A stretch of 64,000 bases of DNA from positions 27,367 through 91,366 of the IMG/VR virus record IMGVR_UViG_3300017991_000083, one strand, 5' to 3'. Shown here in pieces: positions 33,633 through 64,000 of this stretch (positions are counted from its first letter, which is position 1; each line of letters starts with the position of its first letter). Both the position numbers and the translations under genes were made by a program. The notes beneath the pieces were generated by a model. The model was not told the DNA's origin, did not search any database, and saw only the letters and a program-made list of their open reading frames with translations. This DNA comes from a virus.

Positions 33633-33700
33633 GCTGTTCAACATCTGAACACCTACTCTGCATAAGGGCTTCGTCAACTGTAAGCAAGACTGAAAGTGCT
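33633..33700 (-). promoter_or_regulatory. conserved late-module regulatory element, copy 2
   Basis: TGTTCA-ACATC-TGAACA (33635-33651) and AAGCAAGACTGAAAGTGCT (33682-33700). Confidence 0.6.
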
Positions 33701-35204
33701 ACGCCGGGCGTCTGAGACCGGCGATCTTATACTCTCCGCCCCTCAGTCGAGACACGACGATGTCGTTCTGGTGCGACTTCTGTGTCACGTCCTGGATGAA
33801 CTCGAGTGTCATGCGCCGGCCCTCGTCGGTATCGGTGTGCTCGGCCTCCTGATGTACATAGGACTCCAGGTCTTCCCGCCCGACGATGGCGAGCATCCGG
33901 TTGAACACCTGATGCTGGAGCGTCCCGGTCTCGAAGGGGTTCTTCACGTCCTCGGGCGGCGCGGTCATCATGTAGTAGGCAACCGCGTTCCGCCAGGCGA
34001 GCTCGGTCATGGCCTCGAGCTGCTCCGGCGTTGACTCCTCGAGTGCCGACGGGGGCAGGGCCTTCTCGACGTACGGTCGAGGATCGAGTCCAAGCAGCTC
34101 GATCAGCGGCAGCATCTCGGCGTGATCTGCCAGGGACCAGCCCGGGCCCAGGATCTGGTAGCTGAGCTCGAGCGCTTCCGGCCCTGCCTCTGGCACGGCG
34201 ATCTCGAACATGAGCTCGGTCGGCTCCCCAATGACGGGTCGCCAGGTGCAGCGGCACCGGCAGTGCAGGGGCAGCATCCCCGATGCGTCCTCGACGGAAT
34301 AGACCTGATCGTGTTCCGCAAGGCAATCGGGGCATGTGCGATGGTCGTCGGTCGCCGTGTACTGGACGTAGCCGACACCCGTCTGCCGGTAGCCCTCGAG
34401 CTTCCCCTCGTTGTACCAGCGCAGGACCTCGGTCCTGGCCGTGATAGTCGCCCAATTCGAGGCCTCCAGGTTGTACTCGTAGCCGCGGCGTAGAACCTCG
34501 TCAGTCACGGGGTCGATGAGCGGCTCTACCGCGATCGGGATGGGCTTGTTCCAGACCGCCAGGATGCGATCGCGGATCACCGGGATGGACTCGCCCTGGC
34601 GCAGCCCCTCGACGAGTGCCGCCTTGATCTGGTCCGAGATGTGCAGTGCGATGTGCGCCGAGAGCTGCAGGATGTACTCTTCGGCTATCTGGACGGTCAG
34701 CGGATCGCGCATCTCGAACTCGATGGGGATCTCGAACTCGGCGAACGCGCTGTCGCCGCCGGCCTTCAGGGCCTCGAACAGGTTCGCGGCGAAGATGTTG
34801 CGGTAGGGCTCGTAGTCGACATAGCTGATGGTCCTGATGGCATCGGACGCGATGTCCTGCTTCTGGAGCCATCGGCGGACGGGTGCCGGCATGGGCCGGC
34901 GCTCGAAGACGGTCTCGATCTGGTAGGGATGCTTCCAGGGGAACTCTTTGACTCGCTTCTCGACCTTGCGGCCCTTGAGGTAGCTGAAGGCCTCTTTCCT
35001 GGCCTTTTCGGTCATGTGCTTATCGAACAGGGCCAGGCACCGATCGCGCTGAGTCTCGAGGACGCGCATGAGCGCGACCTCTATCCAGAGCTGCTGGAGC
35101 ATCGTCCACTGGTAGAGGGGCGCATCGGGATCGAAGAACCGATCCCACACGTCGACCCGGCGCGAGCCGGTTATCTGTTCTGCGAGCTGTTCCTTCAGCG
35201 GCAT
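33699..35204 (-). CDS. Mu gpF/SPP1 gp7-like minor head protein
   Basis: EGLRQGESI, TARTE, DDHRTCPDC and PLHCRCRC. Confidence 0.9.
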   Translation of the reverse strand: MPLKEQLAEQITGSRRVDVWDRFFDPDAPLYQWTMLQQLWIEVALMRVLETQRDRCLALFDKHMTEKARKEAFSYLKGRKVEKRVKEFPWKHPYQIETVFERRPMPAPVRRWLQKQDIASDAIRTISYVDYEPYRNIFAANLFEALKAGGDSAFAEFEIPIEFEMRDPLTVQIAEEYILQLSAHIALHISDQIKAALVEGLRQGESIPVIRDRILAVWNKPIPIAVEPLIDPVTDEVLRRGYEYNLEASNWATITARTEVLRWYNEGKLEGYRQTGVGYVQYTATDDHRTCPDCLAEHDQVYSVEDASGMLPLHCRCRCTWRPVIGEPTELMFEIAVPEAGPEALELSYQILGPGWSLADHAEMLPLIELLGLDPRPYVEKALPPSALEESTPEQLEAMTELAWRNAVAYYMMTAPPEDVKNPFETGTLQHQVFNRMLAIVGREDLESYVHQEAEHTDTDEGRRMTLEFIQDVTQKSHQNDIVVSRLRGGEYKIAGLRRPA

Positions 35205-35207
35205 CGT

Positions 35208-36689
35208 CTAGCCCAGGCCCCCGGGCTGCAGAAAGAGCTTGTTCAGGGCGCTCTCGCGCCTCGAGAGGTAACGCACGATCCCGAGCTCGACTTCGGTCTC
35301 ATCCAGACCCTCGAGGCCTGGCGAGGACATCAGAGCATCATGCGATACCATCTTGGCCGCCGCCGGCATCTGGCCCGTAGCGGCCAGGGTCGCGGCCATG
35401 TCGACCGGAATGAAGTCAGACGAGATGAACGGCGTGTCCGCCCACTCCTCGTCGATGCGATCGAGACCAAGCTCCTCGCGGATCATGTTGATTGTGAGAG
35501 CGCCTATCTTCCAGTAGATCTCGTGGATCTTGGCGAGCTCCTCTTCGTCCTTCTGCAGGAACGCACGCCAGTCGAGATAGACGTCCCTGTAGCCGAAGCC
35601 TAGGTCGGACCAGATGACTTCCTGGTTGAAGTGGTGCTTGAACAGGCGCAGGTGCGGCGCCACAGCGTCGCGCTTGAACTGCTCCGTCTGCTCCTGCGAG
35701 TTCAGCTTGCCCGTGGTCTGGTCGACGACCCCCAGGATGAACGGGGGGACGCCGTACATCGCCGCGATCTTGAGCATGAGAACACGGCTGTACTCCTGGT
35801 ACTGCATCTCGTTCTGTGTGTTGGCCACCTTGGCGAACTGGACGCCGCCGCCGGCCGTACCCAGGAGCAGGGGCCGGTGCGGGTTGCCACGGAGCTCGTG
35901 ATCCCACCACTGGCGTATCCGGGTCATGGCCTCATTCACGGTCCCGCTCGGCAGGCCACTGAACATGACAGCGAACCGCGGAGTGGCGTCGTTCGCGAAG
36001 AAGTCCAGGTTGTACTGCGATGCGTAGAGCTCCGCTGTCACCGTCTGGCGGAGACTCTCGAGCGGCGAGAGCGGGTAGATGCGCCCGGACTCGGGGTAGG
36101 CGTTCATGTAGATGAGCTCGTCGCTCGGGAACTTGGCGACGACCTTGCCGCCGCCGTCGACCTGGTGGTAGGCCTCGGCGAGGCTACGGAAGATGCCCCG
36201 GTTGTCGACGTTCAGCTTGACCGTCTGTGAGGGCACCGAATAGAGCTCGAACGGGGTCTTGGTCCCCTTTCCGCTGACGGCCTTGACGACCTCCATCGCG
36301 CCGGCGCCGTAGATGAGAGAGTCCTTCGTCACGCGCTGACGGATGGCGCTGAAGCTCTCCGTCGTCGCGTTCGGGTTCGCGATGAAGTCCTCGATCTCTT
36401 CCTTGTGGCGCAGCGTTTCGTCGGAGACCTTACCGCCCTTCCCCGGGACCACCTTGACGATCGGCTCGACTGAGACGATCCGATTCGTTGTCCTGTCGAC
36501 GCAGACGCGCACCCACACGTTCCCGACATACATCAGTCGCATCTCGACGTAGGACAGGCCCTTATAGAGCTGCTTCGTCGGGAGCTCCTGTGCGTGCGAG
36601 AACTCCGGACCTCCGATCACGCTCTCCTTGCCCGAAGTCGCCATCGCAGGCAGGGGCGCCCGCGCTTTCTTCAGTCCGAATGCTGGCAT
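35208..36689 (-). CDS. portal protein (HK97 family)
   Basis: SPLESL, FFANDATP, EMQY and IAAMYGVPPFILG; TINMIREELGL. Confidence 0.92.
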   Translation of the reverse strand: MPAFGLKKARAPLPAMATSGKESVIGGPEFSHAQELPTKQLYKGLSYVEMRLMYVGNVWVRVCVDRTTNRIVSVEPIVKVVPGKGGKVSDETLRHKEEIEDFIANPNATTESFSAIRQRVTKDSLIYGAGAMEVVKAVSGKGTKTPFELYSVPSQTVKLNVDNRGIFRSLAEAYHQVDGGGKVVAKFPSDELIYMNAYPESGRIYPLSPLESLRQTVTAELYASQYNLDFFANDATPRFAVMFSGLPSGTVNEAMTRIRQWWDHELRGNPHRPLLLGTAGGGVQFAKVANTQNEMQYQEYSRVLMLKIAAMYGVPPFILGVVDQTTGKLNSQEQTEQFKRDAVAPHLRLFKHHFNQEVIWSDLGFGYRDVYLDWRAFLQKDEEELAKIHEIYWKIGALTINMIREELGLDRIDEEWADTPFISSDFIPVDMAATLAATGQMPAAAKMVSHDALMSSPGLEGLDETEVELGIVRYLSRRESALNKLFLQPGGLG

Positions 36690-37095: not shown

Positions 37096-37744
37096 CGATG
37101 TCCTCCTCCCCCTCTTCGTCTCCCGGCTCCGGCTCCGGCTCCGGTGCGGCCTCCGGCTTCTGTATCCACCAGATCTGACGCTGCCAGGCGTCCTTGCCCT
37201 TCCGGAGCTCGTCGAGCCTCGCACGTGATGTCGTGTCGGGCAGGAGCCCGATGTCCAGACGGTGCATCGCGGCGAAGGCGCGGACGGCCTCCTCGATCTC
37301 GGGGTAGCGTGCGAAGTCGTGGCCGGCCAGGATGCCCCCGGGCCTGACGACACTCCACCAGGCACTGAGGACCCGGCGGTAGATCGGCTTGTTGTAGAAG
37401 TAGTCGATGTAGACGACGTCGGCGGCGTCCGGATGGGAGAACTGCCGGGCCTCGAGTCCGTCCAGGCGATGGATCTGGAACGCGGCCTCGTCTCTCTTCA
37501 GGGCCTCGGCCTTGACGTGCTCGTACATGGCATCCATGCGCTGACGCTCGCCTACGGTGTCACAGTTCGGGTGAGGGGCCCAGGGGTCGATGAGGACGAA
37601 ATGGGCGCCCTCCCAACCCCGATCGTAGAGGCCGAACGAGAGCTCGCCCTCGAGGACCCCGAGCTCAACTAGGACAGGCTCTGACTTGCCCGTCGATTCC
37701 AACAGTGAACCTACGCTCTCCCACTTCGTCTGCAGCGCTCCCAT
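37082..37744 (-). CDS. class I SAM-dependent methyltransferase (Methyltransf_24-like)
   Basis: VELGVLEG, LIDPW, DVVYID and VRPGGILAGHDF; start uncertain because it overlaps the terminase end. Confidence 0.88.
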   Translation of the reverse strand: MGALQTKWESVGSLLESTGKSEPVLVELGVLEGELSFGLYDRGWEGAHFVLIDPWAPHPNCDTVGERQRMDAMYEHVKAEALKRDEAAFQIHRLDGLEARQFSHPDAADVVYIDYFYNKPIYRRVLSAWWSVVRPGGILAGHDFARYPEIEEAVRAFAAMHRLDIGLLPDTTSRARLDELRKGKDAWQRQIWWIQKPEAAPEPEPEPGDEEGEEDIDGDT

Positions 37745-39467
37745 TGTCGCTATCCCCCTCTAGGGCCCCGAAATAGATGTCAGGGTCAAGGTGTATATCG
37801 TTCTCGATCTTGAAAGCAACAGCCGCGAGTCCGTCCGCGACGTCTTTGCTGCCTTTCAGTACTCCCTCTGTCGACTGACGCTCGTAGCTGAAGTCGGGAT
37901 GGTCGACCTTGTCCCCGCGCCTCTCGAGCTCTCTGAGCTCTCTCTGCAGGATGGGATGCGGATAGAACCGGATGAGGCCCTGGTAGAGCTTAGACTTCAT
38001 GGTGTCGTAGGGGGCCATCGACTTGTCGACACTGAGGGTACTGGCATCGATGCCGTGCCGTATGATGTCCTGGATGCTGTCAATCGACTGGAACCCGTCG
38101 AAGGTCACGTAGAGGATGTTGAACCCGTACATGGTCTTCAGGCGATAGACGAGCTGGCGGACCTCCATGAAATCGACCTCGCTCCCCGACTCCGACGTGA
38201 TCTGGAGCGCCAGGTCGATCTTGACTCCCTTGCGGGGCGTCTTCGGGTCGCTGTCGAGATTGCTCGTGATGTCGATGCCAAGCTCCAGGAGCTCGTCGAC
38301 GGTCCGCTGATCGTAGTGCGCGAACATCTGTTCTGCGTGCGCCATCACGAACGACGCGGCGTCACCGCGCTCTTTCGTCTTCCCTTTCGCGAGGTCGATA
38401 TGGACAACGTAGTGCCGGCCGAGCGAGCCCCTGAACCAGTCCTTGAACCCGATCGAACCGGGGCTGTCAGTAGACAGCAGGTCGCCCAGGATAGGATTCT
38501 CGCCATCGACCGCCTGCGGGATCGTCTGGCGCCGGCGGATGTAGCCTCCGATGTGGCCCTCGCCCTTGCACTCGAACGCCATCTGAGCACCCTCGGGATC
38601 CTCAGCGTACTCCTCTGCGAGGCCCTGGCGGTCGACGCCCAGGTTCACTTCCCAGGTCGCGTGATGAGACGAGAACACGTGGGGCTTGCTCTTGCCCTGC
38701 TTGAACAGGATCTCCATCAGGTCGTTATCGTGGTACTTGTAGGAGAGCAGGCACAGCTTCCCGTGCCCGCGGGAGAACCGGGACGTGATCGTACGCCTGA
38801 GCGCCTTGTACAGGTCCATCCCCTTCTTGACTCGGAAGGACCCGACCTCGTCCATGACAGCGAACAGGATGTTCAGGCCCTCGCCGGTGTACTTCTCGCT
38901 GTTCAGGGAGTGCGCCGTGATGCCGCGGGGGAAATTGATCTCGAGCTTCTTGCTATCCTTGCCTTCCTCGAGATCGACACCCTGCTCGGCGAACCAGTTC
39001 TGGCCCGTCTTCGGGTTCTTCGTGGCCTTGAGGATGCCCTTCAGGTTCGCGAAGAAGACGTCCTTGGCGAGCTTCGCGTTGATCGAGACGTTGACCAGGT
39101 CCAGCGGACTGCCCTTGGCCAGGCCGAGATGCTCCGCCGGCGACCGCATACAGAGCAGTCGGTAGATGACGTAGGCGAACAGCTTGGCGTTCGTCCGGTC
39201 CTTGCCCGAGCCCTTGCCCCAAAAGGCGTGCGCCTCCTGGATGTCAGTAGACCATTCGTAAGGGTCAGTCCCCAGGACGGCGTCGCAGTATTCCTGCTGC
39301 AGCGGGTACATCGGCTCGTGGAGAAAGTCGCGGAAGAACGTGCGGGAGTCTACTGGCTTCTCGTGCCAGAGCTCGTCAGAGTCCTTGGGCAGAGACCCAA
39401 ATGCGGACGCCAGAAGGGATTTGGTGGCCCGACGGACGTCGACGTCCGTCTTCTGTGCCCTCGGCAT
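37665..39467 (-). CDS. terL: terminase large subunit
   Basis: Walker A GKGSGKD, Walker B AVMDE, nuclease HIDLA...TFDGFQS...KDVADG; near the portal. Confidence 0.9.
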   Translation of the reverse strand: MPRAQKTDVDVRRATKSLLASAFGSLPKDSDELWHEKPVDSRTFFRDFLHEPMYPLQQEYCDAVLGTDPYEWSTDIQEAHAFWGKGSGKDRTNAKLFAYVIYRLLCMRSPAEHLGLAKGSPLDLVNVSINAKLAKDVFFANLKGILKATKNPKTGQNWFAEQGVDLEEGKDSKKLEINFPRGITAHSLNSEKYTGEGLNILFAVMDEVGSFRVKKGMDLYKALRRTITSRFSRGHGKLCLLSYKYHDNDLMEILFKQGKSKPHVFSSHHATWEVNLGVDRQGLAEEYAEDPEGAQMAFECKGEGHIGGYIRRRQTIPQAVDGENPILGDLLSTDSPGSIGFKDWFRGSLGRHYVVHIDLAKGKTKERGDAASFVMAHAEQMFAHYDQRTVDELLELGIDITSNLDSDPKTPRKGVKIDLALQITSESGSEVDFMEVRQLVYRLKTMYGFNILYVTFDGFQSIDSIQDIIRHGIDASTLSVDKSMAPYDTMKSKLYQGLIRFYPHPILQRELRELERRGDKVDHPDFSYERQSTEGVLKGSKDVADGLAAVAFKIENDIHLDPDIYFGALEGDSDNGSAADEVGERRFTVGIDGQVRACPS

Positions 39468-54657: not shown

Positions 54658-55299
54658 CTCTCTCCCCTCGAAAGATCGTCCTCGGCGTAGGGGGCACTCG
54701 GGCCATCAGGAATTACCCCCTGTATCCACCCAACAGCAGGCCCCGCTCCGCCCTCGCCCCCCCCCACGCCTCGGACCCGTAACACGCCCTCATCCCATAT
54801 ACGCCAATCCCCCGCCCCCTGGGACAAGGATTCTCGACCATCGTTGCGGCCCGCCGCCCTATGTGACAGTTTTCCTCTCACTTCCCCCCGCTTACAGCAA
54901 CTGTCAGACGATTCCTGGGCCAGCCCTCAGGAACTGAGACTTTTTCGATTTTTCCCTGGTGGCGGTGAAGGGGATAATGCACAGGATGGTGGATTTTCTT
55001 CGTGGTGGTGGAAGTCGTTGCAGGGCAACAACTTAGGGGCGCGACCTTGACAACTTGCGAGGGGTCGCTCAGGAATCCCCTAACCGTCGACGGGGCGCCC
55101 GGTTGCGGCGCTCGAGGGCGCCGGCGCCGTCGGCCGGCCCTGGCCCTGGCCCGGGGCCCTGGGGCAATCCCCAGGGGGCCGCGGGTCGGCCTAACTTGCG
55201 ACCGGGCCGGCGTTTGGGCCGGGTCCAGGGGGCCCAGGTTTACAGAATAGCTATTATGCGACGCTGGCCGGCCTAACTGACGGCGGGGCAATCACTTAG

Positions 55300-56950
55300 C
55301 GCCTGACGTCAGGGCGCCCGGGGGGCCGGGCCGGGGCCAGGGCCGGGGCGATCCGGGGGGCCGGCCCCAGGGGAGACGGGCGACGGCCGGGCCCCGAATC
55401 CGGCCCCGGCGCCGGCCCTGGCCCTGGACCCGACCGGCGACACGGGGGCGTCAGGGGGTCCCCGGGTGCGCCCGGGGTCCAGGGGGGGCGCTCGAGGGGC
55501 GCCGGGGGTGCGGGTGCGGGGGTCCAGGGGGCGGGCCTGGGGGTCGGTTGCCGGCCTGGGGGGGGCGGCCAGGGTCGGGGGCGTTCGTCGATCCTGGGGC
55601 GATCCTGGGGCCCTGGCGGGCGCCCTGGTCGGGGGTCCGGCCCTGGCCCTGGGGCGGGCGCTCGAGCTCTCCGGGCGCCGGCCCTGGCCCTGGCGCTCGA
55701 GCTCTCCGGGCGGGGTCCAGGGGGCGGGGGGGGCGCTCGAGCTCTCCCCCTGGGGCGTCGGGTGCGGGGGAGCTCTCGAGGGGGCGGGCCAGGGCGGGGG
55801 TGCTCAGGGTCGGGGGCGGGGGCGTTCGTGTCTCCTGGGGGGCGTACGGGGGCCGGTTTGGGTGCGGTCGGGGCGTTTGGGCGTTTTCGGGGGCCTTTTG
55901 GGGTCGCCGGCGGGCGTCAGGGGTCGGGCGGTCGGCGCTCCTGGGGGCGCTCTCGAGCTCTCCGGGCGCCGGCCTGGGGCCTGGGGGGGCGATCCTGGGG
56001 GCGTCAGGGGGCGGGGGCGCTCTCCGGGTGCGGCGTCAGGGCGTCAGGGTCGCCCCTGGGCGGGCCCTGGGGCCTGGGGCGGCCAGGGGTGCGGCCTGGG
56101 GGCGTTCGTGTCTCCTGGGGCGATCCTGGGGCCCTGGCGGGCGCCCTGGTCGGGGGTCCGGCCCTGGCCCTGGGGCGGGCGCTCGAGCTCTCCGGGCGCC
56201 GGCCTGGGGGCGCTCTCGAGGGTCGGCGGGGGAGCTCTCCGGGCGGGGGTCCAGGGGGGGCGCTCGAGCTCTCCCCGGGGGGCGCTCTCGAGGGGGCGCC
56301 CTTGCGCCCTGGGTGCAGGGGGCGCCCTGGGGGCCGCGGGCGTTTTCGGCGGTTTCGGGGGATCCCCGGCGCCGTTTTCGGCGGTTTCGGCGTTTGGGCG
56401 GTTTCGTTTGGGCGGGGCGTTTTCGGGGGGGCCTATTCGATCGCGGCCGGGGGCCGCGGGCGCCCTCGAGGGGGGGGCGCCGGCGCCGGCCGGGGCCGGT
56501 GTCGGCGGGTCGGGTCCGGGGGCCCTCGAGGGCCGGCCCTGGGGCGCTCTCGAGCTCTCCGGCCGCGGCCAGGTCGGGGCGCTCTCGAGGGGGCGGCCCT
56601 GGGGCGATCCTGGGGCCGTCAGGGCGCCCCGGCGGCCTGGGGCGGCCAGGGGTCCGGCCTGGGGGCGTTCGTCGATCCTGGGGCGATCCTGGGCCCCTGG
56701 GGGGCGCTCCTGGGGGCGCTCTCGAGCTCTCCCCAGGGGCGCTCTCGAGGGGGCGGCCTTGCGGCATATCCGCGGCGATCCTGGGCGATATGCGGCGCCG
56801 GTACGGGGAGCGCCCCCCGCGGCCCTGGGACCTGGGCGCGGGGGGCGGGTGCGGTGTTGCGGGGATCGGGGCGGGCGGGCGGGGGCGCCCTGGGCGCCGG
56901 CGGGGTCCTCACGCCGGCGGGCGCCCCCTGGGGGCGGTCCCGGCGGGCGT
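55300..56950. repeat. G-rich non-coding repeat tract
   Basis: 92-bp exact duplication (55592-55683 = 56113-56204); many CTCGAGCTCTCC and GGGGCGTTCGT motifs. Confidence 0.8.
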
Positions 56951-56951
56951 G

Positions 56952-57815
56952 CTACGGTCCCGCAATCGTCGCCAGGCCGGCGGCGCTCTCGAGCGCTCCG
57001 GCCACGGGGCCCAAAGCCACGGCGGCGGCGGCCAGTACGGCGGCGGCCAGGGCGGCCCCTGCTATGACGGCCAGGCGGACGGCGCCCAGGTCGGGCGGCG
57101 GGCCGGCCGGCCCGCGGGGGGCCGGCGCGGGGTCCGATCCGCGCCAGGTTGCAGGCGCGGGCCCCAGGGCGCCGGCCGCGATCGCGTCACGGGCGGCGGT
57201 TGCGAGTGTTCCGGCGCCGGCCAGGCCGGCCCGGATAACGCCGACCAGGGCCAGGGCCAGGGCCCCGGCCAGGGCCAGGGCCCCGGCCAGGGCCAGGGCG
57301 CCGGCCTGGTCGGCTGTCTCTGTTAGCTTGTCGCCGGCGGCCTCGAGGCGGGCGCGGCGGCCGCGGGCGACCGTCAGGCGCCAAACGGGCGGCCAGGGGC
57401 GCGGGCCCCCGACGTCGCCCCCGGCGACCTGGCGCCAGGCCCAGGCGACGGCCTGGGCGCCCTGGCGGGCGTGGTAGGCCGTCGACCTGACGGCCCCCCA
57501 GGCCCTCGAGCGCTCGAGCGCCCAGGGGCCCAGGGGCCGGGTTGCGATCGCCCAGGCGATCGGGGCCAGGTCGGCCAGGTGGCGGGCCCGGCGGCGGGTC
57601 CAGGTGCGGCCGGCGCGGCCGGCGCGGGCGATCCTGGCGCCCAGGGTGCGGGCGGCCGCGGCCTGGGCGGCGTCATAGTCGGCCAGGGCGTCGGCCAGGG
57701 CGGCGGCGGCGTCATCGGCGCCAAACGGGGCGTGTGATCCCCGGGCGGCAACCTCGGCGGCCTCGAGTACGGCGGCCAGGGCGCGGCGGGTGCGGGTGCG
57801 GGCGGTCTCTTTCAC
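56952..57815 (-). CDS. Ala-rich hypothetical protein with a hydrophobic C-half
   Basis: Starts at the repeated leader's SD (AAGGGGGAGACA GTG); C-half is low complexity. Confidence 0.5.
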   Translation of the reverse strand: MKETARTRTRRALAAVLEAAEVAARGSHAPFGADDAAAALADALADYDAAQAAAARTLGARIARAGRAGRTWTRRRARHLADLAPIAWAIATRPLGPWALERSRAWGAVRSTAYHARQGAQAVAWAWRQVAGGDVGGPRPWPPVWRLTVARGRRARLEAAGDKLTETADQAGALALAGALALAGALALALVGVIRAGLAGAGTLATAARDAIAAGALGPAPATWRGSDPAPAPRGPAGPPPDLGAVRLAVIAGAALAAAVLAAAAVALGPVAGALESAAGLATIAGP

Positions 57816-57870
57816 TGTCTCCCCCTTGCGGGGGGGCCGGCCAGGAGCCGGCCCCGGTTGCGGTTGACTA
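57816..57870 (-). repeat. repeated intergenic hairpin/SD element, copy 1
   Basis: TAG-TCAACCGCAACC-GGGGCCGGC(TCCTG)GCCGGCCCC-CCCGCAAGGGGGAGACA-GTG. Confidence 0.85.
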
Positions 57871-58680
57871 GCTGTTGGCGCTCTCGGCGAAACGGGCCGC
57901 GACGGTCACGGGCTCCCCCTCGAGGCGGGCGACCAGGGGCGCCAGGCGCTCGAGCACGGCCACCAGGGCGGCGCGGGCCCTGACCTCGAGCTCGGCGCGG
58001 GCCTGGTCGGCCTCGGGGCCCTCGGCGTGGATCACGTCCAGGGCGCCGGCGTCGGTCGGGCCCTCGGGGTCGAAACGGCGCCCAAACTCGGCGCCGGCCT
58101 TGTCGACGTCGCCGGCGGTATCAATGGCGGCCTGGTATAGCACGGCCTCGACGGCGCGGGCGCCGGCCTGGGCCTGGCCGACCCGGCCGCGGTTGACGTC
58201 GGCCAGGTGCGCCAGGCGCTCGGCGTCGGTGTCATCCCGGGCCAGGTCTCCGGCCTCGAGGGCGGCGCCGGCCAGGACGTCGACGGCCCAGGCCTGGCCC
58301 AGGGCCCGGCCCAGGGCGTCGGCCAGGGCCTCGAGGCCCCGGGCGGCGGCGTCGATCTTCGCCCAGGCCAGGCCGGCGGCGTACGTCGCCCCGGCGGCGC
58401 CGGCCAGGGCCTGGCGGCGGTACGATCGGCCCGCGGCGATCACGGCCGCGGCGGTGTCCTCACGGCGGGCGCCGGCGGTCCGGGCCGCGGCCTCGAGCTC
58501 GAGGGCGGCGGCCTCGGCGTCGGCGTCGCCGGCCAGGCGGTCGGCCTCGAGGCGGGCCAGGTCGGCCGCGGTGCGGGCGGCCTCGGCGACGTTGCGGGCG
58601 GCGCGGTTGCAGGTCGCCAGGTCGCGGGCGTCGGCCGGGGCGACCAGGGCGGGCGGGGCGGTTTCGGTTGCGTTTCTCAC
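57868..58680 (-). CDS. Ala-rich helical hypothetical protein
   Basis: Bounded exactly by two repeat elements. Confidence 0.7.
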   Translation of the reverse strand: MRNATETAPPALVAPADARDLATCNRAARNVAEAARTAADLARLEADRLAGDADAEAAALELEAAARTAGARREDTAAAVIAAGRSYRRQALAGAAGATYAAGLAWAKIDAAARGLEALADALGRALGQAWAVDVLAGAALEAGDLARDDTDAERLAHLADVNRGRVGQAQAGARAVEAVLYQAAIDTAGDVDKAGAEFGRRFDPEGPTDAGALDVIHAEGPEADQARAELEVRARAALVAVLERLAPLVARLEGEPVTVAARFAESANS

Positions 58681-58737
58681 TGTCTCCCCCTTGCGGGGGG
58701 CCGGCGCCCAGGGCGCCGGCCCGGTTGCGGTTGTCTA
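58681..58737 (-). repeat. repeated intergenic hairpin/SD element, copy 2
   Basis: TAG-ACAACCGCAACC-GGGCCGGCGCC(CTG)GGCGCCGGCCC-CCCGCAAGGGGGAGACA-GTG. Confidence 0.85.
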
Positions 58738-59481
58738 CAGGTTGCCGGCCGGCGTGTCGCCGGCCAGGGTGTCGGCCAGGGCCTGGGCGCAGCCGGCGAG
58801 CTCGGCGGCGGCGGCGTTGTCCAGGCGGCGGGCGATCGCGTCGGCGTCGCCGGCGGCCCCCCTGGCGTCGGCCAGGGTGCGACGGGCGGCCCGCATATCG
58901 CGGGCGGCCTTGTCGGCGGCCTCGGCGGCCTTGCGGGCCCGGCGGGTCGCCAGGTCCAGGGCGCCGGCGGCCCTCGACGCCCGGCGGGCGGCCTTGCGGG
59001 CCAGGCGGTCGGCGGTCCGGCGCTCCCGGGCCAGGCGGGCGCGGTCGGCGACGTACTCCGGCCGCGGATCACAGCCGGCCGCGGTCCGCTGATCCTCGAG
59101 GGCCTGGGCGCTCTCGAGGCGGGCGACGGCCTGGGCGGCGGCCGTCAGGGCGGCGCCGGCCTGGGCCTCGGCCTCGGCCTCGACCTGGCGGGCCTCATCT
59201 CTCAGGCGCTCGACCAGGGCCGCGGCGCCGGCCAGGACCTCGGGCGCCGGGTTGCGGTAGGCCTCGAGGCGGACCGTTGCCAGGTGCCAGGAATGGCCCC
59301 CGCTGTGCATGTGCGGCGCCAGGCGGACCCGGGCGCGGTCGGTTTCCTCGTCGGCGTAGGCCTGGACCTCGACGCGACCCGACCAGCCGGCGGCGTGCGT
59401 GCGTACCCCCGACCCGGCCGACCCTAGACGGGTGGCGGCGGTCCGGCCCTGGCCCTCTGTCATCCCCTGGAAGCGTGCCAT
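58735..59481 (-). CDS. hypothetical protein (N-terminal beta domain plus Ala-rich helix)
   Basis: MARFQG...ATRLGS...GW motif; TAATG coupling. Confidence 0.7.
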   Translation of the reverse strand: MARFQGMTEGQGRTAATRLGSAGSGVRTHAAGWSGRVEVQAYADEETDRARVRLAPHMHSGGHSWHLATVRLEAYRNPAPEVLAGAAALVERLRDEARQVEAEAEAQAGAALTAAAQAVARLESAQALEDQRTAAGCDPRPEYVADRARLARERRTADRLARKAARRASRAAGALDLATRRARKAAEAADKAARDMRAARRTLADARGAAGDADAIARRLDNAAAAELAGCAQALADTLAGDTPAGNL

Positions 59482-59813
59482 TAGTGGCCCCCTCTCTGGC
59501 CGGCGACGTCGCCGGCGGTTGTGGTGTCGGTTGCGATCACGGCGGCCGCGAATCCGGCCGCGGTCAGGCGCCGGGCGCCGACCCTGGCGGCGTCGGCGTC
59601 GGCGTCGGCCTGGTCGGCCAGGCGGGCGGCCCGGCGGAATGCGGCCGCGGCCCGGCGGGCCTGGCGCTCGGCGGCCTGGTCGCCCGGCCGGCGGGCGGCC
59701 GCGGCGTCGGCCGCGGCGGCCAGGCGGGCGGCCCTTGCGACCTGGCGGGCGGCCCGGTCGGCGGCGGCCTCGAGCTCGGCGGCGGCGTCTCTGATTGCGT
59801 CGGCGGTTGTCAT
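59481..59813 (-). CDS. Ala-rich hypothetical protein
   Basis: Starts at the repeat-element SD. Confidence 0.65.
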   Translation of the reverse strand: MTTADAIRDAAAELEAAADRAARQVARAARLAAAADAAAARRPGDQAAERQARRAAAAFRRAARLADQADADADAARVGARRLTAAGFAAAVIATDTTTAGDVAGQRGGH

Positions 59814-59867
59814 TGTCTCCCCCTTGCGGGGGGCCGGCCAGGGGCCGGCCCCGGTTGCGGTTGACTA
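59814..59867 (-). repeat. repeated intergenic hairpin/SD element, copy 3
   Basis: TAG-TCAACCGCAACC-GGGGCCGGCC(CCT)GGCCGGCCCC-CCGCAAGGGGGAGACA-ATG. Confidence 0.85.
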
Positions 59868-60224
59868 GCTGTCGGCGGATGCGTCGCCGACGGTCCCGGC
59901 CAGGTGCTCGGCCTCGAGCTCGGCGTCGGCCTGGGCGTCGGCGATCCGGGCCAGGGCCTGGCCGGCGCGGAGAGTGTGCAGGCGCTCATCTCCGGCGGCC
60001 CTGATCCGGCCGGCGATCGCGGCGACGGTCTCGGCGATCCGGTCGGCGTCGCCGGCCTGGATCGCGTCGGCGACGGTGTGCAGGTCATCCGGGCGGACGG
60101 CGACGCCCCCGGCGGGCGCGGCCTTGCGGGCGGCGGCCAGGTCGGCCAGGTCGGCGGCGGTCTCACTGGCGGCGGCGGCCTGATCGGCGGCGGCGGCCTT
60201 GCGGTCGGCGGTGCTCTTGCTCAC
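59865..60224 (-). CDS. Ala-rich hypothetical protein
   Basis: CCCGCAAGGGGGAGACA GTG start; first gene after the promoter. Confidence 0.65.
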   Translation of the reverse strand: MSKSTADRKAAAADQAAAASETAADLADLAAARKAAPAGGVAVRPDDLHTVADAIQAGDADRIAETVAAIAGRIRAAGDERLHTLRAGQALARIADAQADAELEAEHLAGTVGDASADS

Positions 60225-60332
60225 TGTCTCCCCCTTGCGGGTGCTCCCCTCGGCGGCCCCGGCCGGATTGCCGGCGGCGGTCTCGGGGGGCGGTTTGTGT
60301 CCTGCTGTTGGGCGGTTTGTCGTCATGGGGGC

Positions 60333-60362
60333 ATGGTAGCACGCCGGCGCCCAGGCCGTCAA
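60333..60362 (-). promoter_or_regulatory. sigma70-type promoter
   Basis: TTGACG-N18(ending TGC)-TACCAT with upstream AAAATAAT. Confidence 0.75.
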
Positions 60363-60664
60363 GGATTATTTTCTCCCCCGTGTCGATTGTCGGCCGGCCC
60401 CCCTCGAGGCCGGGCCGGCGCCCCCTCGGGGGGCGGCGTATTCCGGCGGATTGCGGGCGCACGTTGCAAGCGGCGTGCCAAACGGTCGGCGACGCCCAGG
60501 GGCCGGGCCTCGAGGGCGGGCCCAGGGGGCGCTGGCGGGGGAGCTCGGCGCCGGCCTCGAGGGCGCCCCCTGGGGGCCGCGGGCGGCCTGGGGCGGCCCG
60601 GTGTCCAGGCCGGGGGCGTTCGTCGATCCTGGGGCGATCCCGGGGCCCTGGGCGACGCCCTGGC

Positions 60665-60801
60665 GCCGGCCCTGGCCCTGGCGGGGGAGCTCGAGCGCCG
60701 GCCGGCCCTGGCCCTGGCGGGGGAGCTCGAGCGCCGGCCGGCCCTGGCCCTGGCGGGGGAGCTCGAGCGCCGGCCGGCCCTGGCCCTGGCGGGGGAGCTC
60801 G
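60665..60801. repeat. 36-bp tandem repeat (3 exact copies plus 1 partial)
   Basis: GCCGGCCCTGGCCCTGGCGGGGGAGCTCGAGCGCCG. Confidence 0.9.
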
Positions 60802-60835
60802 GCGCCGGCCTCGAGGGCGCCGGGGCGGTTCGGCC

Positions 60836-60865
60836 TTGACTCGAGGCCGGCCGGCGTGCTACAAT
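60836..60865 (+). promoter_or_regulatory. sigma70-type promoter facing array A
   Basis: TTGACT-N18(ending TGC)-TACAAT. Confidence 0.7.
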
Positions 60866-60996
60866 CGCGGTTCGGGTCGCCCCTGGGCGGCCCTGACGCC
60901 GGCCCCCGCGGCCCCCGACCTGGGCGGCCCCCGGCCGGCCCCCTCGAGGCGCCCCCGGCGCCCCCCCGGCCCCCTGGCCCCCCGGCCATATCACGC

Positions 60997-61204
60997 CCCC
61001 TAGCTTGCGAGCGATATGCCGACCCCTAGCTTGCGAGCGATATGCCGACCCCTAGCTTGCGAGCGATATGCCGACCCCTAGCTTGCGAGCGATCCCGACC
61101 CCCTTAGCTTGCGAGCGATCTCGAGACCGCGACCTTGCGAGCGATCTCGAGACCGCGACCTTGCGAGCGATCTCGAGACCGCGACCTTGCGAGCGATCCC
61201 GACC
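60997..61204 (+). repeat. array A: 8 x CTTGCGAGCGAT with an exact 26-bp period
   Basis: Cores at 61004, 61030, 61056, 61082, 61108, 61134, 61160, 61186. Confidence 0.92.
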
Positions 61205-61296
61205 AGGCCCCAAACGGTCGGCGCCCCGGCCTCGACAAGGGGAGAGACCAGGGCGCCCGGGCCCCCGTTTGTGCGGGGGCGTTTTCGTTGTGTTTT

Positions 61297-62097
61297 CTAG
61301 GTCGCCGGGGGCGCCTCAAGGGCCCCGGCGACCCGGGCCGCGGCCTTGAGCTCGGCGTCGCGGGCGGCCTCGGCGTCGTCATAGTCGACAATCCGAACCT
61401 GGACCCCCGGCGTCGCGTCGCCGACGTGGGCGACGCCCCCCAGGACCTCGACGGTCACAAACGGGGCGCCGTCGATCTCCAGGCCGGCCAGGGCGATCTC
61501 GAGCTCTCCGGCGACGTACTCCGCGGCCTGGCGCCTCGGCTCGATCTCCGGGAACTCGCCCCCCTCAACGTCGGCGGCGGCCGCGGCCAGGAGCTCGACC
61601 TCGGCTCTCAGGGCCCGGATTGCGAAACGGGCCCGGTCGGCCAGGGCCTCGGCGCCGGCGCGGGCGACCTCGAGGGCCTGGGCGTACTCCTCGACCTCGC
61701 GGGCGTGTCGGTACTCCGTCATAACTTCCTGATCCTCGGCCTCGAGCGAATAGTACGCCCTCAGGTCGGCGGCCCAGGTGTCCAGGACCTCGGCGTCGCC
61801 CCGGCCCCCGTGTACCTGGGCGCCCGGCGACACGTACTCAGCCAGGGCGTCGATCACGTACTGCACGCCGTCAGGCGTCAGGGAAGCGCCCAGGTACTCC
61901 CCACATTCTGCACAGTGCAGGGGCGAATCCGTTTCGCCCCCGCCGTCAGGATACGGGCCGGCCGGCCAGGTGTCGGTGTCGGCGTCATCACGCGACGGGC
62001 GCCGGGCCGGGGCCCTGCCGGCGGCCTCGAGCTCGGCCTGGATCGCGGCGGCGCAAGTTTCACAGTAGATGTCGGCCTGGTAGATGTAGACGTCCAT
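61297..62097 (-). CDS. zinc-binding hypothetical phage protein
   Basis: YQADIYCETC...DSPLHCAECG; C-terminal VEVLGGVA...VRIVDYD; AAGGGGGG SD. Confidence 0.75.
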   Translation of the reverse strand: MDVYIYQADIYCETCAAAIQAELEAAGRAPARRPSRDDADTDTWPAGPYPDGGGETDSPLHCAECGEYLGASLTPDGVQYVIDALAEYVSPGAQVHGGRGDAEVLDTWAADLRAYYSLEAEDQEVMTEYRHAREVEEYAQALEVARAGAEALADRARFAIRALRAEVELLAAAAADVEGGEFPEIEPRRQAAEYVAGELEIALAGLEIDGAPFVTVEVLGGVAHVGDATPGVQVRIVDYDDAEAARDAELKAAARVAGALEAPPAT

Positions 62098-62177
62098 GTT
62101 GCCCCCCTTGTCGGTTGCGGCCCCCTCGAGGGCCAGGCGGCCCCCGGGCGACGGCGCCCGGGGGCCTGATCGGCGTG

Positions 62178-63386
62178 CTACTTCTCGAGTCTCAGGGGCA
62201 TCAGGATCGACCTGACGCCCTGGGCGCCCTGGTCGCCGGCGGCCTCGATCACGGCCGCGGCGACGGGCTTGGTCCATCCGACCCTGATCCGCTCCCCCTC
62301 GGGGAGATGCACCAGGGCGGCGGCCAGGTAGTCGCCATTGTATCCGGCGGTGAACTCGGCGGGCCCGCCGTCGACGTCGATGTACTCCCAGGCCTCGCCG
62401 ACGTCGGGCGTCGACACGGCGACCTTGCAGCGCCCCTTGCGGACCTCGAGACGAACCTGGTTCGTCAGGGTGTCGGCCAGGGGGGCGACGCGATCCAGGG
62501 CGCCGGCCAGGGCGGCCCGGTCGAACGTCGCCCAGGTCGCCGGCGTCGGGATCACTTGACGGTAGTTTGGGAATGGCCCCTCGAGCGCCCGGGCGACGAT
62601 AGTGACCAGGCCGATCTTGAACCCGACCCGGCCGGCCCCGTCGGCCTCGACGTATCCGAACCTGACAGGCGCCGGGGGCAGTTTCGCCTTGCGGGCGGCC
62701 TTCAGGTCGGCCGCGGCCTCGGCGGCGGCCAGGGCCAGGGCCTTTGGCGGCACTATGACGGCCTTGTCGGCCAGGCCGTTGGTGCGGGCGGGGAGCTCGG
62801 CGGAGACCAGGCGGTGGCCGTCGGTCGCCGTCGCCAGGACCTGGCCGTCGCCGACCTCGACAAACACACCGTTTAGACTCGGGCGCGTTTCGTCGGTCGA
62901 CGTGCAGAACCTGACGCGATTGTCCAGGGCGACCAGGGCCTCGGCGTCGATCTCGAGGCCCGGCGCCGGCGCCGGCCGGATCGACGGGAACTCGGGCGCC
63001 GGGAATCCCAGGACCTTGACGGTTGTCGGGCCCAGGGTGAGCTCGGCGCTCTCCGGGTCGCCGGGCTCGGTCTCCCCCTCGGCGGGCGCCGGGGTCTCGG
63101 CGTATATGGTCACGGCCTCGATCCCCTTTGCGCCCTTCAGGACCTTCAGGAGACGGTCGACGCCCAGGACCACGGCCCCGGCCTCGAGCTCGGCGCCGGC
63201 CTCGGCGGCGATCCGCCGGGTCACGGTCACGTCTAGGTCGGTCGCCGTCGCCAGGAGCTCTCCGGCCTCGACGTCGACGGTCATGTACGCCCCCGACAGT
63301 ACGGGGAGCGTCGCCTTGTTCGATGCTACTTTCTTCAGGCCCCTCAGGGCGCTCTCCAGGTCGGCACGTGCTACGGTTGCCCTCAT
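62178..63386 (-). CDS. dnaN: DNA polymerase III beta sliding clamp homologue
   Basis: TLPVLSG, ATDLD, STDETRPSLNGV, ATDGHRL, VIVPPK, EGPFPNYRQVIP and ILMPLR. Confidence 0.92.
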   Translation of the reverse strand: MRATVARADLESALRGLKKVASNKATLPVLSGAYMTVDVEAGELLATATDLDVTVTRRIAAEAGAELEAGAVVLGVDRLLKVLKGAKGIEAVTIYAETPAPAEGETEPGDPESAELTLGPTTVKVLGFPAPEFPSIRPAPAPGLEIDAEALVALDNRVRFCTSTDETRPSLNGVFVEVGDGQVLATATDGHRLVSAELPARTNGLADKAVIVPPKALALAAAEAAADLKAARKAKLPPAPVRFGYVEADGAGRVGFKIGLVTIVARALEGPFPNYRQVIPTPATWATFDRAALAGALDRVAPLADTLTNQVRLEVRKGRCKVAVSTPDVGEAWEYIDVDGGPAEFTAGYNGDYLAAALVHLPEGERIRVGWTKPVAAAVIEAAGDQGAQGVRSILMPLRLEK

Positions 63387-63460
63387 ATCTTGCCCCCTTG
63401 TCTCGGCGGCCTCGGCGGCCGCGGCCCTTGTCTGATGTCGGCCGGATTGCCGACGTTTAG

Positions 63461-63490
63461 AGTCTAGCATACATGCCCCCATGCTGTCAA
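63461..63490 (-). promoter_or_regulatory. sigma70-type promoter of the dnaN operon
   Basis: TTGACA-N18(ending TGC)-TAGACT with upstream AAAAA. Confidence 0.8.
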
Positions 63491-63504
63491 GCGCCTTTTT
63501 GTGC

Positions 63505-63534
63505 TTGCGTCAGGGTCGGCCGGCGTGCTAGACT
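63505..63534 (+). promoter_or_regulatory. divergent sigma70-type promoter facing array B
   Basis: TTGCGT-N18(ending GGCCGGCGTGC)-TAGACT. Confidence 0.55.
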
Positions 63535-63592
63535 CGAGGCCTCGAGCGATCCCCAGGGCCCGGCCCTGGGGAGCTCGACGTCGGCCCCGGCC

Positions 63593-63716
63593 GGCGCCCA
63601 GGGGGAGCTCGAGGGCCCCGACCTGGCGCCGGCCTCGAGGGGGCGCCCAGGGGGAGCTCGAGGGCCCCGACCTGGCGCCGGCCTCGAGGGGGCGCCCAGG
63701 GGGAGCTCGAGGGCCC
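63593..63716. repeat. 49-bp tandem repeat (about 2.5 copies)
   Basis: GGCGCCCAGGGGGAGCTCGAGGGCCCCGACCTGGCGCCGGCCTCGAGGG at 63593, 63642 and partially at 63691. Confidence 0.9.
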
Positions 63717-63737
63717 GGGACCGGCGGCGATATGTCG

Positions 63738-63919
63738 CCCCCTAGCTTGCGAGCGATCCCGACCTCGAGCTTGCGAGCGATCCCGACCTCGAGCTTGCGA
63801 GCGATCCCGACCTCGAGCTTGCGAGCGATCCCGACCAACACAAGGGGCCCCAGGTCTATAGACCTGGGGCCCCTTAGCTTGCGAGCGATATGTCGCCCCC
63901 TAGCTTGCGAGCGATCCCG
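63738..63919 (+). repeat. array B: 6 x CTTGCGAGCGAT interrupted by a palindrome
   Basis: Cores at 63746, 63770, 63794, 63818, 63878, 63904. Confidence 0.92.
63842..63875. repeat. perfect 34-bp palindrome
   Basis: AAGGGGCCCCAGGTCTA|TAGACCTGGGGCCCCTT. Confidence 0.92.
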
Positions 63920-64000
63920 TCAACCGGCGGCGGCGGCCGACGTGGGCTCTCGGTAGCCCAGGGGGACCCGGTTGCGAATCTGCCCCTTCAGTCGGTCGGC

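Follow-up and report, generated by a model that had tools for sequence, protein, structure and literature searches.

An 80% GC block of restricted vocabulary in the promoter-rich region of an uncultivated siphovirus-like phage

The stretch of DNA analysed here, hereafter the window, comprises 64,000 nucleotides (bases 27,367-91,366) of the 91,366-bp IMG/VR virus record IMGVR_UViG_3300017991_000083, which represents an uncultivated, siphovirus-like phage with a genome of about 91 kb. Coordinates refer to the window unless marked as genome coordinates. Between 55,091 and 60,988 the window holds a block of 80.5% guanine plus cytosine (GC), both edges of which are sharp according to a change-point fit, segment composition, and GC profiles. 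The block is real, native, and unusual in degree, while early regions that are rich in promoters and carry untranslated repeat tracts are already known as a kind of element. Its vocabulary is an exaggerated form of a genome-wide rule, under which some two dozen of the 6-bp palindromes count as forbidden and the remainder as tolerated or over-used. On balance, with a probability of roughly 0.55, we interpret the block as native to the phage and as one discrete unit of its promoter-proximal (early) region, composed of an alanine-rich operon plus untranslated repeats, which would combine a repeated unit design with a vocabulary shaped by restriction. To our knowledge, no phage has been described in which a 6-kb block of 80% GC, uniform across coding and untranslated DNA, lies within a 62% GC genome.

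Extent and origin of the GC-rich block

The maximum-likelihood change points were placed at 55,091 (GC from 0.62 to 0.81) and 60,988 (from 0.81 to 0.71), delimiting 5.9 kb or 6.5% of the genome. The GC profile stayed at 0.59-0.65 up to 54.9 kb, was 0.79-0.81 at 55-61 kb, and was 0.71-0.73 at 61-64 kb. An earlier note on this DNA had described a switch from about 65 to about 80% GC; the switch is abrupt and real (0.62 to 0.81), but the 80% level is confined to 55.1-61.0 kb, and the DNA at 61-64 kb reaches only about 71-72%. Within the block, GC was 80.6% in a 1.9-kb untranslated tract, 80.3% in 3.3 kb of coding DNA, and 80.7% in a 0.77-kb untranslated spacer. As coding and untranslated parts are equal in this respect, the composition belongs to the DNA region and not to coding. 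Both edges meet CTTGCGAG-type repeat units, namely a degenerate, solitary unit on the plus strand at 55,040-55,072 (with a 2-mismatch match at 55,054-55,065) on the left and an array starting at 60,997 on the right.

The abruptness of the 18-point GC step could indicate an assembly chimera or a recent foreign insert from a donor of much higher GC content. Consistent with such an origin, tetranucleotide usage of the block is weakly correlated with that of the rest (r = 0.35), and four of its five open reading frames (ORFs) had no relatives in the searches made. However, the forbidden words, and the split between forbidden and tolerated words, are common to the block and the rest. The left-versus-right k-mer comparison that the earlier note had named as a check gave a weakly correlated tetranucleotide usage together with a shared palindrome rule. 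The two sides further agree in promoter family, array motif, style of ribosome site, and gene orientation; in particular, the promoter family, the array motif, and GGAGCTCGAGGGCC-type repeats recur across the GC step, including beside normal-GC genes at genome 3.1-3.6 kb. An identical 270-amino-acid (aa) ORF of the block was found on near-full-length contigs from JGI/IMG (up to 91,368 bp) and ENA/Logan (up to 91,190 bp), and the portal gene was present on four contigs in the collection, the longest being 91,368 bp (JGI/IMG, ENA, Logan). Moreover, the 80% GC of the untranslated DNA lies above that of any likely donor. Given that forbidden palindromes, word split, promoter family, arrays, and near-full-length contigs are all common to the block and the rest, the sequence evidence indicates that the block is native to the phage and not chimeric, and we consider a chimera or insert highly improbable.

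The record carries 123 identical bases at its two ends (window 63,878-64,000 and genome 1-123), an overlap that IMG/VR labels as a direct terminal repeat, and the genome is rated complete by CheckV. Exactly 123 bp also overlap at the ends of a 26% GC IMG/VR record that is unrelated, and JGI assemblies are presumably made by MEGAHIT with a largest k of 123. Given the equal overlap in the unrelated record, the 123 bp are the assembler's k-mer and not a physical terminal repeat; the ends of the record are thus arbitrary, and the assembly merely closes on itself. As 83% of the genome is taken up by coding-like minus-strand ORFs, it is read as a single gene train, and on the closed map this train begins at genome 3.2 kb.

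Restricted vocabulary and palindrome usage

The restricted vocabulary reported in the earlier note was confirmed. Only 1,084 distinct 6-mers were present in 55,050-61,000, compared with about 2,300-2,470 in pieces of equal length elsewhere. The six words listed in that note (GGCC, GGCGCC, CCAGG, CTCGAG, GAGCTC, and GTCG) account, when counted with their complements, for 47% of the block; composition predicts 20%, and the rest of the window has 16%. Coding and untranslated DNA behave alike, with 47% in coding DNA, 46% in the main untranslated tract, and 58% in the short one. CCWGG alone holds one in six of the A/T bases of the block. Markov simulations of the block at orders 1 to 3 gave 1,584 to 1,203 distinct 6-mers, and repeated 12-mers cover 69% of the block (48% under the order-3 model). 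Most of the low diversity is already present in the order-3 model (1,203 vs 1,084); the restriction operates mainly at the tetranucleotide level, supplemented by local duplication.

Palindromes are used in an all-or-none manner across the genome. In the 78-kb normal-GC part, 22 6-bp palindromes have zero copies and six more have 1-2 copies. Those absent include GCGCGC and CGCGCG (composition expectation 72 each) and, with 26 expected of each, GGTACC, CAGCTG, ACCGGT, ACGCGT, CCATGG, GCATGC, GTGCAC, and TGCGCA; the 4-bp palindrome TTAA is missing as well (0 vs 195 expected). When hexamers with an order-2 expectation of at least 10 were compared, 14 of 41 palindromes were absent as opposed to 4 of 1,626 non-palindromic words (CACCTC, CATTGC, CCCAGA, and CCCAGC). 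This selective loss carries the signature of restriction avoidance. At the other extreme, CTCGAG, GAGCTC, GTCGAC, GACGTC, and GCCGGC are over-used 2-5 times genome-wide, the first three at 4-5 times, and the over-use of tolerated palindromes, up to 5-fold in the genome, rises to 30-fold in the block. Avoidance of restriction sites (palindromes) in phage genomes has been surveyed (PMC6286503). The selective loss of short palindromes seen here, with 14 of 41 testable 6-bp palindromes absent, resembles that phenomenon but differs from it in its unusual scale (about 22-28 hexamers absent or nearly so) and in being two-state, with the tolerated palindromes over-used. Pfam families for C5 and N4/N6 DNA methyltransferases (PF00145 and PF01555) had no match in the genome.

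The block follows the same rule. Its density of 6-bp palindromes is 52.6 per kb, against 17 per kb elsewhere, which is 1.4 times the base-composition expectation and matches the prediction of an order-4 Markov model (313 sites found, 311 predicted). Only sites that the genome tolerates or over-uses are in excess (CTCGAG, GAGCTC, GCCGGC, GGCGCC, and CCWGG), while GCGCGC and CGCGCG are both at 0 although 24 of each are expected from composition and 9 of each at order 2. The avoidance extends to sub-words: among 5-mers in the block, those unique to forbidden palindromes (as defined from the normal-GC part) have a median log2 observed/expected ratio of -1.57, and those unique to tolerated ones a median of +0.63 (p = 4e-5). 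The proposed enrichment for palindromic restriction-type sites therefore holds for tolerated palindromes but not for forbidden ones such as GCGCGC and CGCGCG, which are absent. Two related ideas in the earlier note were not upheld. A sequence constraint peculiar to the segment finds no support, as the block keeps the forbidden/tolerated split of the genome, and neither does an unusual escape from depletion of restriction-type sites, as forbidden palindromes are absent and only tolerated ones are used.

Codon choice probably accounts for the words in the coding part. Alanine is encoded by GCC in 86% of cases (34-46% elsewhere) and by GCG in 11% (35-48% elsewhere); other preferred codons in the block are CTG for leucine (72%), CGC for arginine (62%), ACC for threonine (71%), and GAG for glutamate (96%). 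The succession GCC-CTG-GCC yields CCTGG/CCAGG and GGCC, CTC-GAG and GAG-CTC yield the XhoI and SacI words, and GGC-GCC and GCC-GGC those of NarI and NaeI. The shift away from GCG would fit the ban on GCGCGC and CGCGCG, both of which would be created by neighbouring alanine (GCG) and arginine (CGC) codons. Since the untranslated DNA carries the same words at equal GC and without any codon reason, a constraint or bias acts on the DNA of the region.

Promoters, genes, and untranslated repeats

Promoters were scored by their match to TTGACA-N16-18-TATAAT, an E. coli-type consensus, with a cut-off of 10/12. Only four sites in the whole genome scored at least 10/12: genome 3,177 (-), 63,490 (-), 60,836 (+), and genome 21,033 (-). 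Three of them sit at the head of the gene train, and 60,836 (+) and 63,490 (-) are the only two in the window, in line with the earlier view that this segment has the clearest sigma70 promoters. Four sigma70-like sites were found in 54-64 kb, where shuffled sequences gave an expectation of 0.1. The strong sites and three weaker ones form a family, TTGACn-N12-GYGTGC-TAnnnT, arranged as three divergent pairs (genome 3,148-3,290; window 63,461-63,534; and window 60,333-60,865). The second pair consists of back-to-back promoters, TTGACA-N18-TAGACT (63,490 to 63,461, -) and TTGCGT-N18-TAGACT (63,505-63,534, +). The third combines a plus-strand promoter, TTGACT-N18-TACAAT (60,836-60,865), with a promoter-like minus-strand sequence ahead of the alanine-rich operon, TTGACG-N18-TACCAT (9/12; 60,333-60,362). 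The remaining high-scoring site, TTGACA-N17-TACACT at genome 21,005-21,033 (-), lies outside the window in a 663-bp intergenic gap of the replication-gene part.

The three pairs share one layout that is repeated where the gene train begins, and the 80% block is the third such unit. In each, the leftward promoter heads an operon: an acidic operon (genome 3,136 down to 408), dnaN with a 267-aa ORF, and the alanine-rich operon of the block. The rightward promoter of each pair runs into a CTTGCGAGCGAT repeat array. Downstream of the 60,836 promoter, the array comprises eight CTTGCGAGCGAT cores on the plus strand with a 26-bp period (60,997-61,204), and an intrinsic terminator (61,261-61,290, +) ends the read of this promoter through the eight repeats. 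The predicted product is a non-coding transcript of about 420 nt (60,872-61,295, +) with a C-rich leader, eight CUUGCGAGCGAU repeats, and a strong 3' hairpin followed by a U-rich tail; its predicted fold has a z-score of -4.2 relative to shuffled sequences. At 63,593-63,919 (+), a perfect tandem repeat (49 bp x 2.5) is followed by CTTGCGAGCGAT arrays of 24-bp x 4 and 26-bp x 2, and further arrays occur at genome 1-40 and 3,487-3,618. Between two of the arrays lies a perfect 34-bp palindrome (63,842-63,875) centred on CTATAG, a word otherwise nearly absent from the genome.

The best promoter of the genome, TTGACT-N18-TATAAT (11/12), heads the operon starting at genome 3,136, whose first four products (genome 883-3,136) are acidic (isoelectric point, pI, 4.1-4.4), belong to no known family, and in one case carry an (ED)n tail. 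These four proteins are candidate DNA mimics or anti-restriction proteins. The middle unit encodes DnaN, the beta sliding clamp of DNA polymerase III (62,178-63,386, -; 72% GC), identified by three Pfam clamp domains, phrog_947, and homologues, and the 267-aa ORF with two CxxC motifs (61,297-62,100, -).

The arrangement of these units around dnaN might be taken for a replication or partition control region, in which the CTTGCGAGCGAT arrays serve as iterons or centromere-like sites and the GC-rich DNA as a structural spacer for an origin. DnaN and the operons next to it are flanked by four phased arrays (24-26 bp period), every one of them preceded by a promoter of its own, an arrangement known from transcription-activated origins, and the cumulative GC skew is lowest at 54.9 kb. 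Nevertheless, Pfam, PHROG, and further protein searches of the region revealed no initiator, ParA, or ParB, no A/T-rich unwinding element is evident in what is the least meltable DNA of the genome, and the arrays themselves lie outside the 80% block. Such a role appears distinctly improbable.

The alanine-rich operon consists of five minus-strand ORFs with clear codon periodicity (GC at codon positions 1/2/3 of about 0.85/0.6/0.94) and 29-41% alanine. Its first gene (59,865-60,224) encodes an alanine-rich, acidic protein of 119 aa and is followed by a 110-aa ORF (59,481-59,813; 41% alanine, basic) whose stop overlaps the next start (TAATG). Then come a 248-aa ORF (58,735-59,481) with an N-terminal beta domain of 85 aa and an alanine-rich tail, the 270-aa ORF (57,868-58,680; 31% alanine, acidic), and a 287-aa ORF (56,952-57,815; 32% alanine, pI 11.6) with two hydrophobic Ala/Leu/Gly segments and GC of 0.84/0.70/0.90 at the three codon positions. 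Paralogy among the five was considered and rejected, as none was detected on comparison. Four of the five had no recognisable relative in Pfam, PHROG, and protein-collection searches, and a protein atlas gave no usable match; the 287-aa ORF matched nothing in Pfam or PHROG, and the sole match of the 270-aa ORF among 5.8 billion proteins was itself. The N-terminal 85 aa of the 248-aa ORF (59,227-59,481) belong to phrog_5927, a group of widespread phage proteins of 75-140 aa (99 representative matches). AlphaFold2 modelled this part as a confident six-strand beta domain (predicted local distance difference test score 91), for which a comparison with the PDB found no convincing match; the best had a Z of 5.2 (an anti-Cas9-associated protein), and PC4/Pur-alpha-like folds had Z of 4.5-4.8. 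Two full-length homologues of the 248-aa ORF from other samples (45% and 44% identity) have tails with 32% and 18% alanine, compared with 35% here; the contigs that bear the homologues are 1.0 and 1.7 kb long. The alanine-rich tails of these homologues show that the composition of the gene is old and maintained and is no artefact of a single assembly.

Three junctions of the operon carry an intercistronic cassette of about 52 nt on the minus strand (57,816-57,867, 58,681-58,734, and 59,814-59,864), recognised from repeat family D20 and the sequence. It runs from the stop codon through a GC hairpin to a CCCC-GCAA-GGGG hairpin that overlaps a GGGGGAG ribosome site. In cluster K mycobacteriophages, the conserved SAS/ESAS element, which includes the ribosome-binding site, recurs directly upstream of several genes in one region. 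The cassette resembles it as a recurring ribosome-site element but differs in sequence and in its stop/hairpin/GNRA-hairpin form within a five-gene operon.

Untranslated G-rich DNA totals 2.7 kb in the block. The main tract spans 1.9 kb (55,051-56,951), its plus strand having a G fraction of 0.49 and an A fraction of 0.055, and separates the operon from the normal-GC genes, as the earlier note had proposed for a repeat tract. The spacer (60,363-60,996, 80.7% GC) holds a repeat unit termed u4, a perfect tandem repeat of 36 bp x 4.1 (60,665-60,810), and the plus-strand promoter. Alignment identified three decayed units in the main tract, u1-u3 (cores 55,577-55,683, 56,098-56,204, and 56,661-56,767), as copies of the u4 unit at 60,550-60,900. 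The core common to all four is about 100-150 nt long (about 60,590-60,720 in u4), and u3 retains GGCGTGCTAC, a remnant of the u4 promoter. The repeats in the tract are spaced 521 and 563 nt apart, distances not divisible by 3, and the copies thus fall in different frames. Codon (3-base) periodicity is absent at 55.2-56.95 kb and 60.4-61.2 kb. A Gly-rich protein encoded on the plus strand across 55.4-57.5 kb was rejected on the grounds of the out-of-frame repeats and the absent periodicity; open plus-strand frames in the tract are the expected outcome of 80% GC. The 1.9-kb tract contains 18 G-quadruplex motifs on the plus strand and 0 on the other, where 12.9 +/- 3.2 are expected from dinucleotide composition.

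These decayed copies bear on another explanation, namely that the block is a by-product of recombination. In a recombination-prone segment bounded by repeats, slippage, unequal exchange, and GC-biased gene conversion would have raised the GC content and made short words uniform, leaving the tract as a decaying duplicate without function. Equal GC in coding and untranslated DNA would be expected from such a process, and so would the edges at CTTGCGAG-type units, the descent of u1-u3 from u4 (decayed promoter included), the recent expansion implied by the perfect 36- and 49-bp tandem repeats, and the one-sided GC gradient from 80 through 71 and 66 to 63%. On the other hand, conversion bias leaves the strict absence of forbidden words and the restricted context of A/T bases unexplained, and the alanine-rich composition kept in a relative of 45% identity argues for an old, maintained state. 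We regard this explanation as unlikely.

Early expression, relatives, and implications

Host-type promoters, a position near the start of a one-strand gene train, and small orphan genes make the segment look early, as the earlier note had suggested. Under the favoured reading of the block as a promoter-proximal unit, host RNA polymerase would start at the 60,362 promoter and transcribe the five alanine-rich genes early, after which the long untranslated tract, with its C-rich transcript and template strand rich in G-quadruplex motifs, would act as a barrier or terminator zone before the next block of genes. The words of the coding part would arise from Ala, Leu, Gly, Glu, and Arg codons with extreme C-ending bias that avoid GCGCGC and CGCGCG, and the A/T-poor make-up from tolerated words would reflect heavy restriction pressure, in a genome where the two main Pfam families of DNA methyltransferases found no match. 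The 80% set-point itself may stem from selection for A/T-poor "safe" DNA, from GC-biased conversion in a repeat-bounded or terminally repeated segment, or from a structural role. Several observations weigh against this reading. The early assignment depends on promoter matches to an E. coli-type consensus, which the host may not share. As to the putative barrier role, the G-quadruplex count of the tract does not clearly exceed the dinucleotide expectation (18 vs 12.9 +/- 3.2), and the C-rich RNA of the tract is predicted to be strongly structured, disfavouring the loading of Rho. In addition, the set-point and the sharp edges are left without explanation. The low k-mer diversity does not follow from forbidden words alone, and most of it is given by an order-3 Markov model, making the vocabulary largely a tetranucleotide-level bias, and the block and the normal-GC part are weakly correlated in tetranucleotide usage (r = 0.35).

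The layout also invites comparison with phage T5, whose left terminal repeat contains pre-early genes under host promoters and three untranslated repeat regions of 629 bp, 188 bp, and 1.2 kb, the innermost of which (1.2 kb) carries a proposed injection stop signal with paired DnaA boxes (bioRxiv 10.1101/866236). The two share host sigma70-type promoters, small and poorly conserved early ORFs, and large untranslated regions rich in direct repeats and palindromes between the early operon and other genes (1.9 kb and 0.77 kb here). By analogy, the block or the whole high-GC region could lie in a long terminal repeat at the entering end, with a pre-early operon and with the 1.9-kb tract as the injection stop. 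A discrete block of uniform composition with two sharp edges, amounting to 6.5% of the genome, would suit such a first-step-transfer segment. Furthermore, a promoter, a small orphan operon, and, at the inner edge, a large untranslated tract of repeats follow one another as in the left terminal repeat of T5, and a contig that closes on itself is what a long terminal repeat collapsed in short-read assembly would yield. By contrast, no homologue of A1, A2, or dmp was found, the five ORFs and their neighbours had no Pfam match, and their sole PHROG match is a family of unknown function. DnaA boxes (TTATCCACA, at most 1 mismatch, the host box being assumed to be near the consensus) numbered 0 in 54-64 kb and 3 in the window, where 3.8 are expected, so that DnaA-box-like sites, let alone paired ones, are lacking from the region. 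The two best promoters, the acidic operon of candidate anti-restriction proteins, and dnaN all lie outside the 80% block. The 123-bp overlap, being the assembler's k-mer, does not mark the physical ends, and typing of the terminase to infer the ends found no Pfam or PDB match. T5, for its part, has no comparable GC island, and the virion genes of the two phages are unrelated. Together, these points make a T5-like arrangement fairly unlikely, if not negligible.

A bolder version of this analogy would hold the block to be "safe-word" DNA, a first-exposed segment, possibly a collapsed T5-type terminal repeat, that was purged of A/T and of host-restriction words, so that it could survive and be transcribed before anti-restriction proteins are present. 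The price would be that only Ala/Gly/Arg-rich proteins can be encoded, and the tract would again serve as a stop or barrier. We consider this version unlikely. Early regions of T7-type (class I) phages, which have strong host promoters at the leading end and express Ocr first, offer a different parallel. The one-strand gene train, the clustering of the strongest host-type promoters at its start, and the strongly acidic proteins of the first operon are common to both. In the present phage, however, the promoters form three divergent pairs, each accompanied by a repeat array, the acidic operon is outside the 80% block, and no phage RNA polymerase was identified in this region.

Relatives of the portal in ENA and Logan assemblies have 74-81% identity, including a 94,281-bp contig at 74%. 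DnaN is only 43% identical to its counterpart on that contig; the head region thus changes at a far higher rate than the virion genes do. The fraction of Gly+Ala+Arg+Pro is 0.32-0.40 in the DnaN proteins of these phages, 0.27 in their portals, and 0.24-0.26 in the nearest cellular DnaN, hinting that the relatives likewise have a head region of elevated GC. Those nearest cellular proteins, from Eisenbacteria and Gemmatimonadota genomes (37-40% identity), give a weak hint that the host belongs to one of these lineages. No close relative among cultured phages was detected by megablast or tblastn, and IMG/VR gave no matches to DnaN, to the 270-aa ORF, or to the patterns of the array and the cassette. 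Two matches to the array pattern in a scan of JGI metagenomes were in unrelated DNA and were rejected as chance. Among GTDB genomes, a portal profile recovered one distant phage-like contig in a Chloroherpeton metagenome-assembled genome, and the repeat-unit core had no match. Distant IMG/VR relatives (portal identity 39-56%) are low-GC phages with no dnaN or GC island in the parts sampled; five of them had no 40-nt stretch of at least 92% GC and no island in the 40 kb sampled of each, which carries little weight as two are of 26% and 37% GC.

Beyond the head region, the genes immediately downstream of the block (54,657 down to 39,567) are about 30 small ORFs, nearly all without a known family, and no consensus promoter was found ahead of them. 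The virion genes, all on the minus strand, include a tape measure (11,990-15,502), a MuF-like protein (33,699-35,204), an HK97-type portal (35,208-36,689), and a divergent large terminase (37,665-39,467). Searches for tRNAs found none, and Rfam gave no credible match.

If the composition of the block is selected, it would illustrate clearly how a phage can adapt the raw sequence of an entire segment, translated or not, to evade host defences, and how such a constraint limits the proteins that a segment can encode. If it is instead a by-product of recombination, it would represent a striking local runaway of GC in a virus. Alongside T5, where the function of large untranslated repeat regions next to early genes is still under debate, the phage also provides an unrelated second system in which to study them, and the restriction systems of its uncultivated host can usefully be read from its all-or-none palindrome usage.

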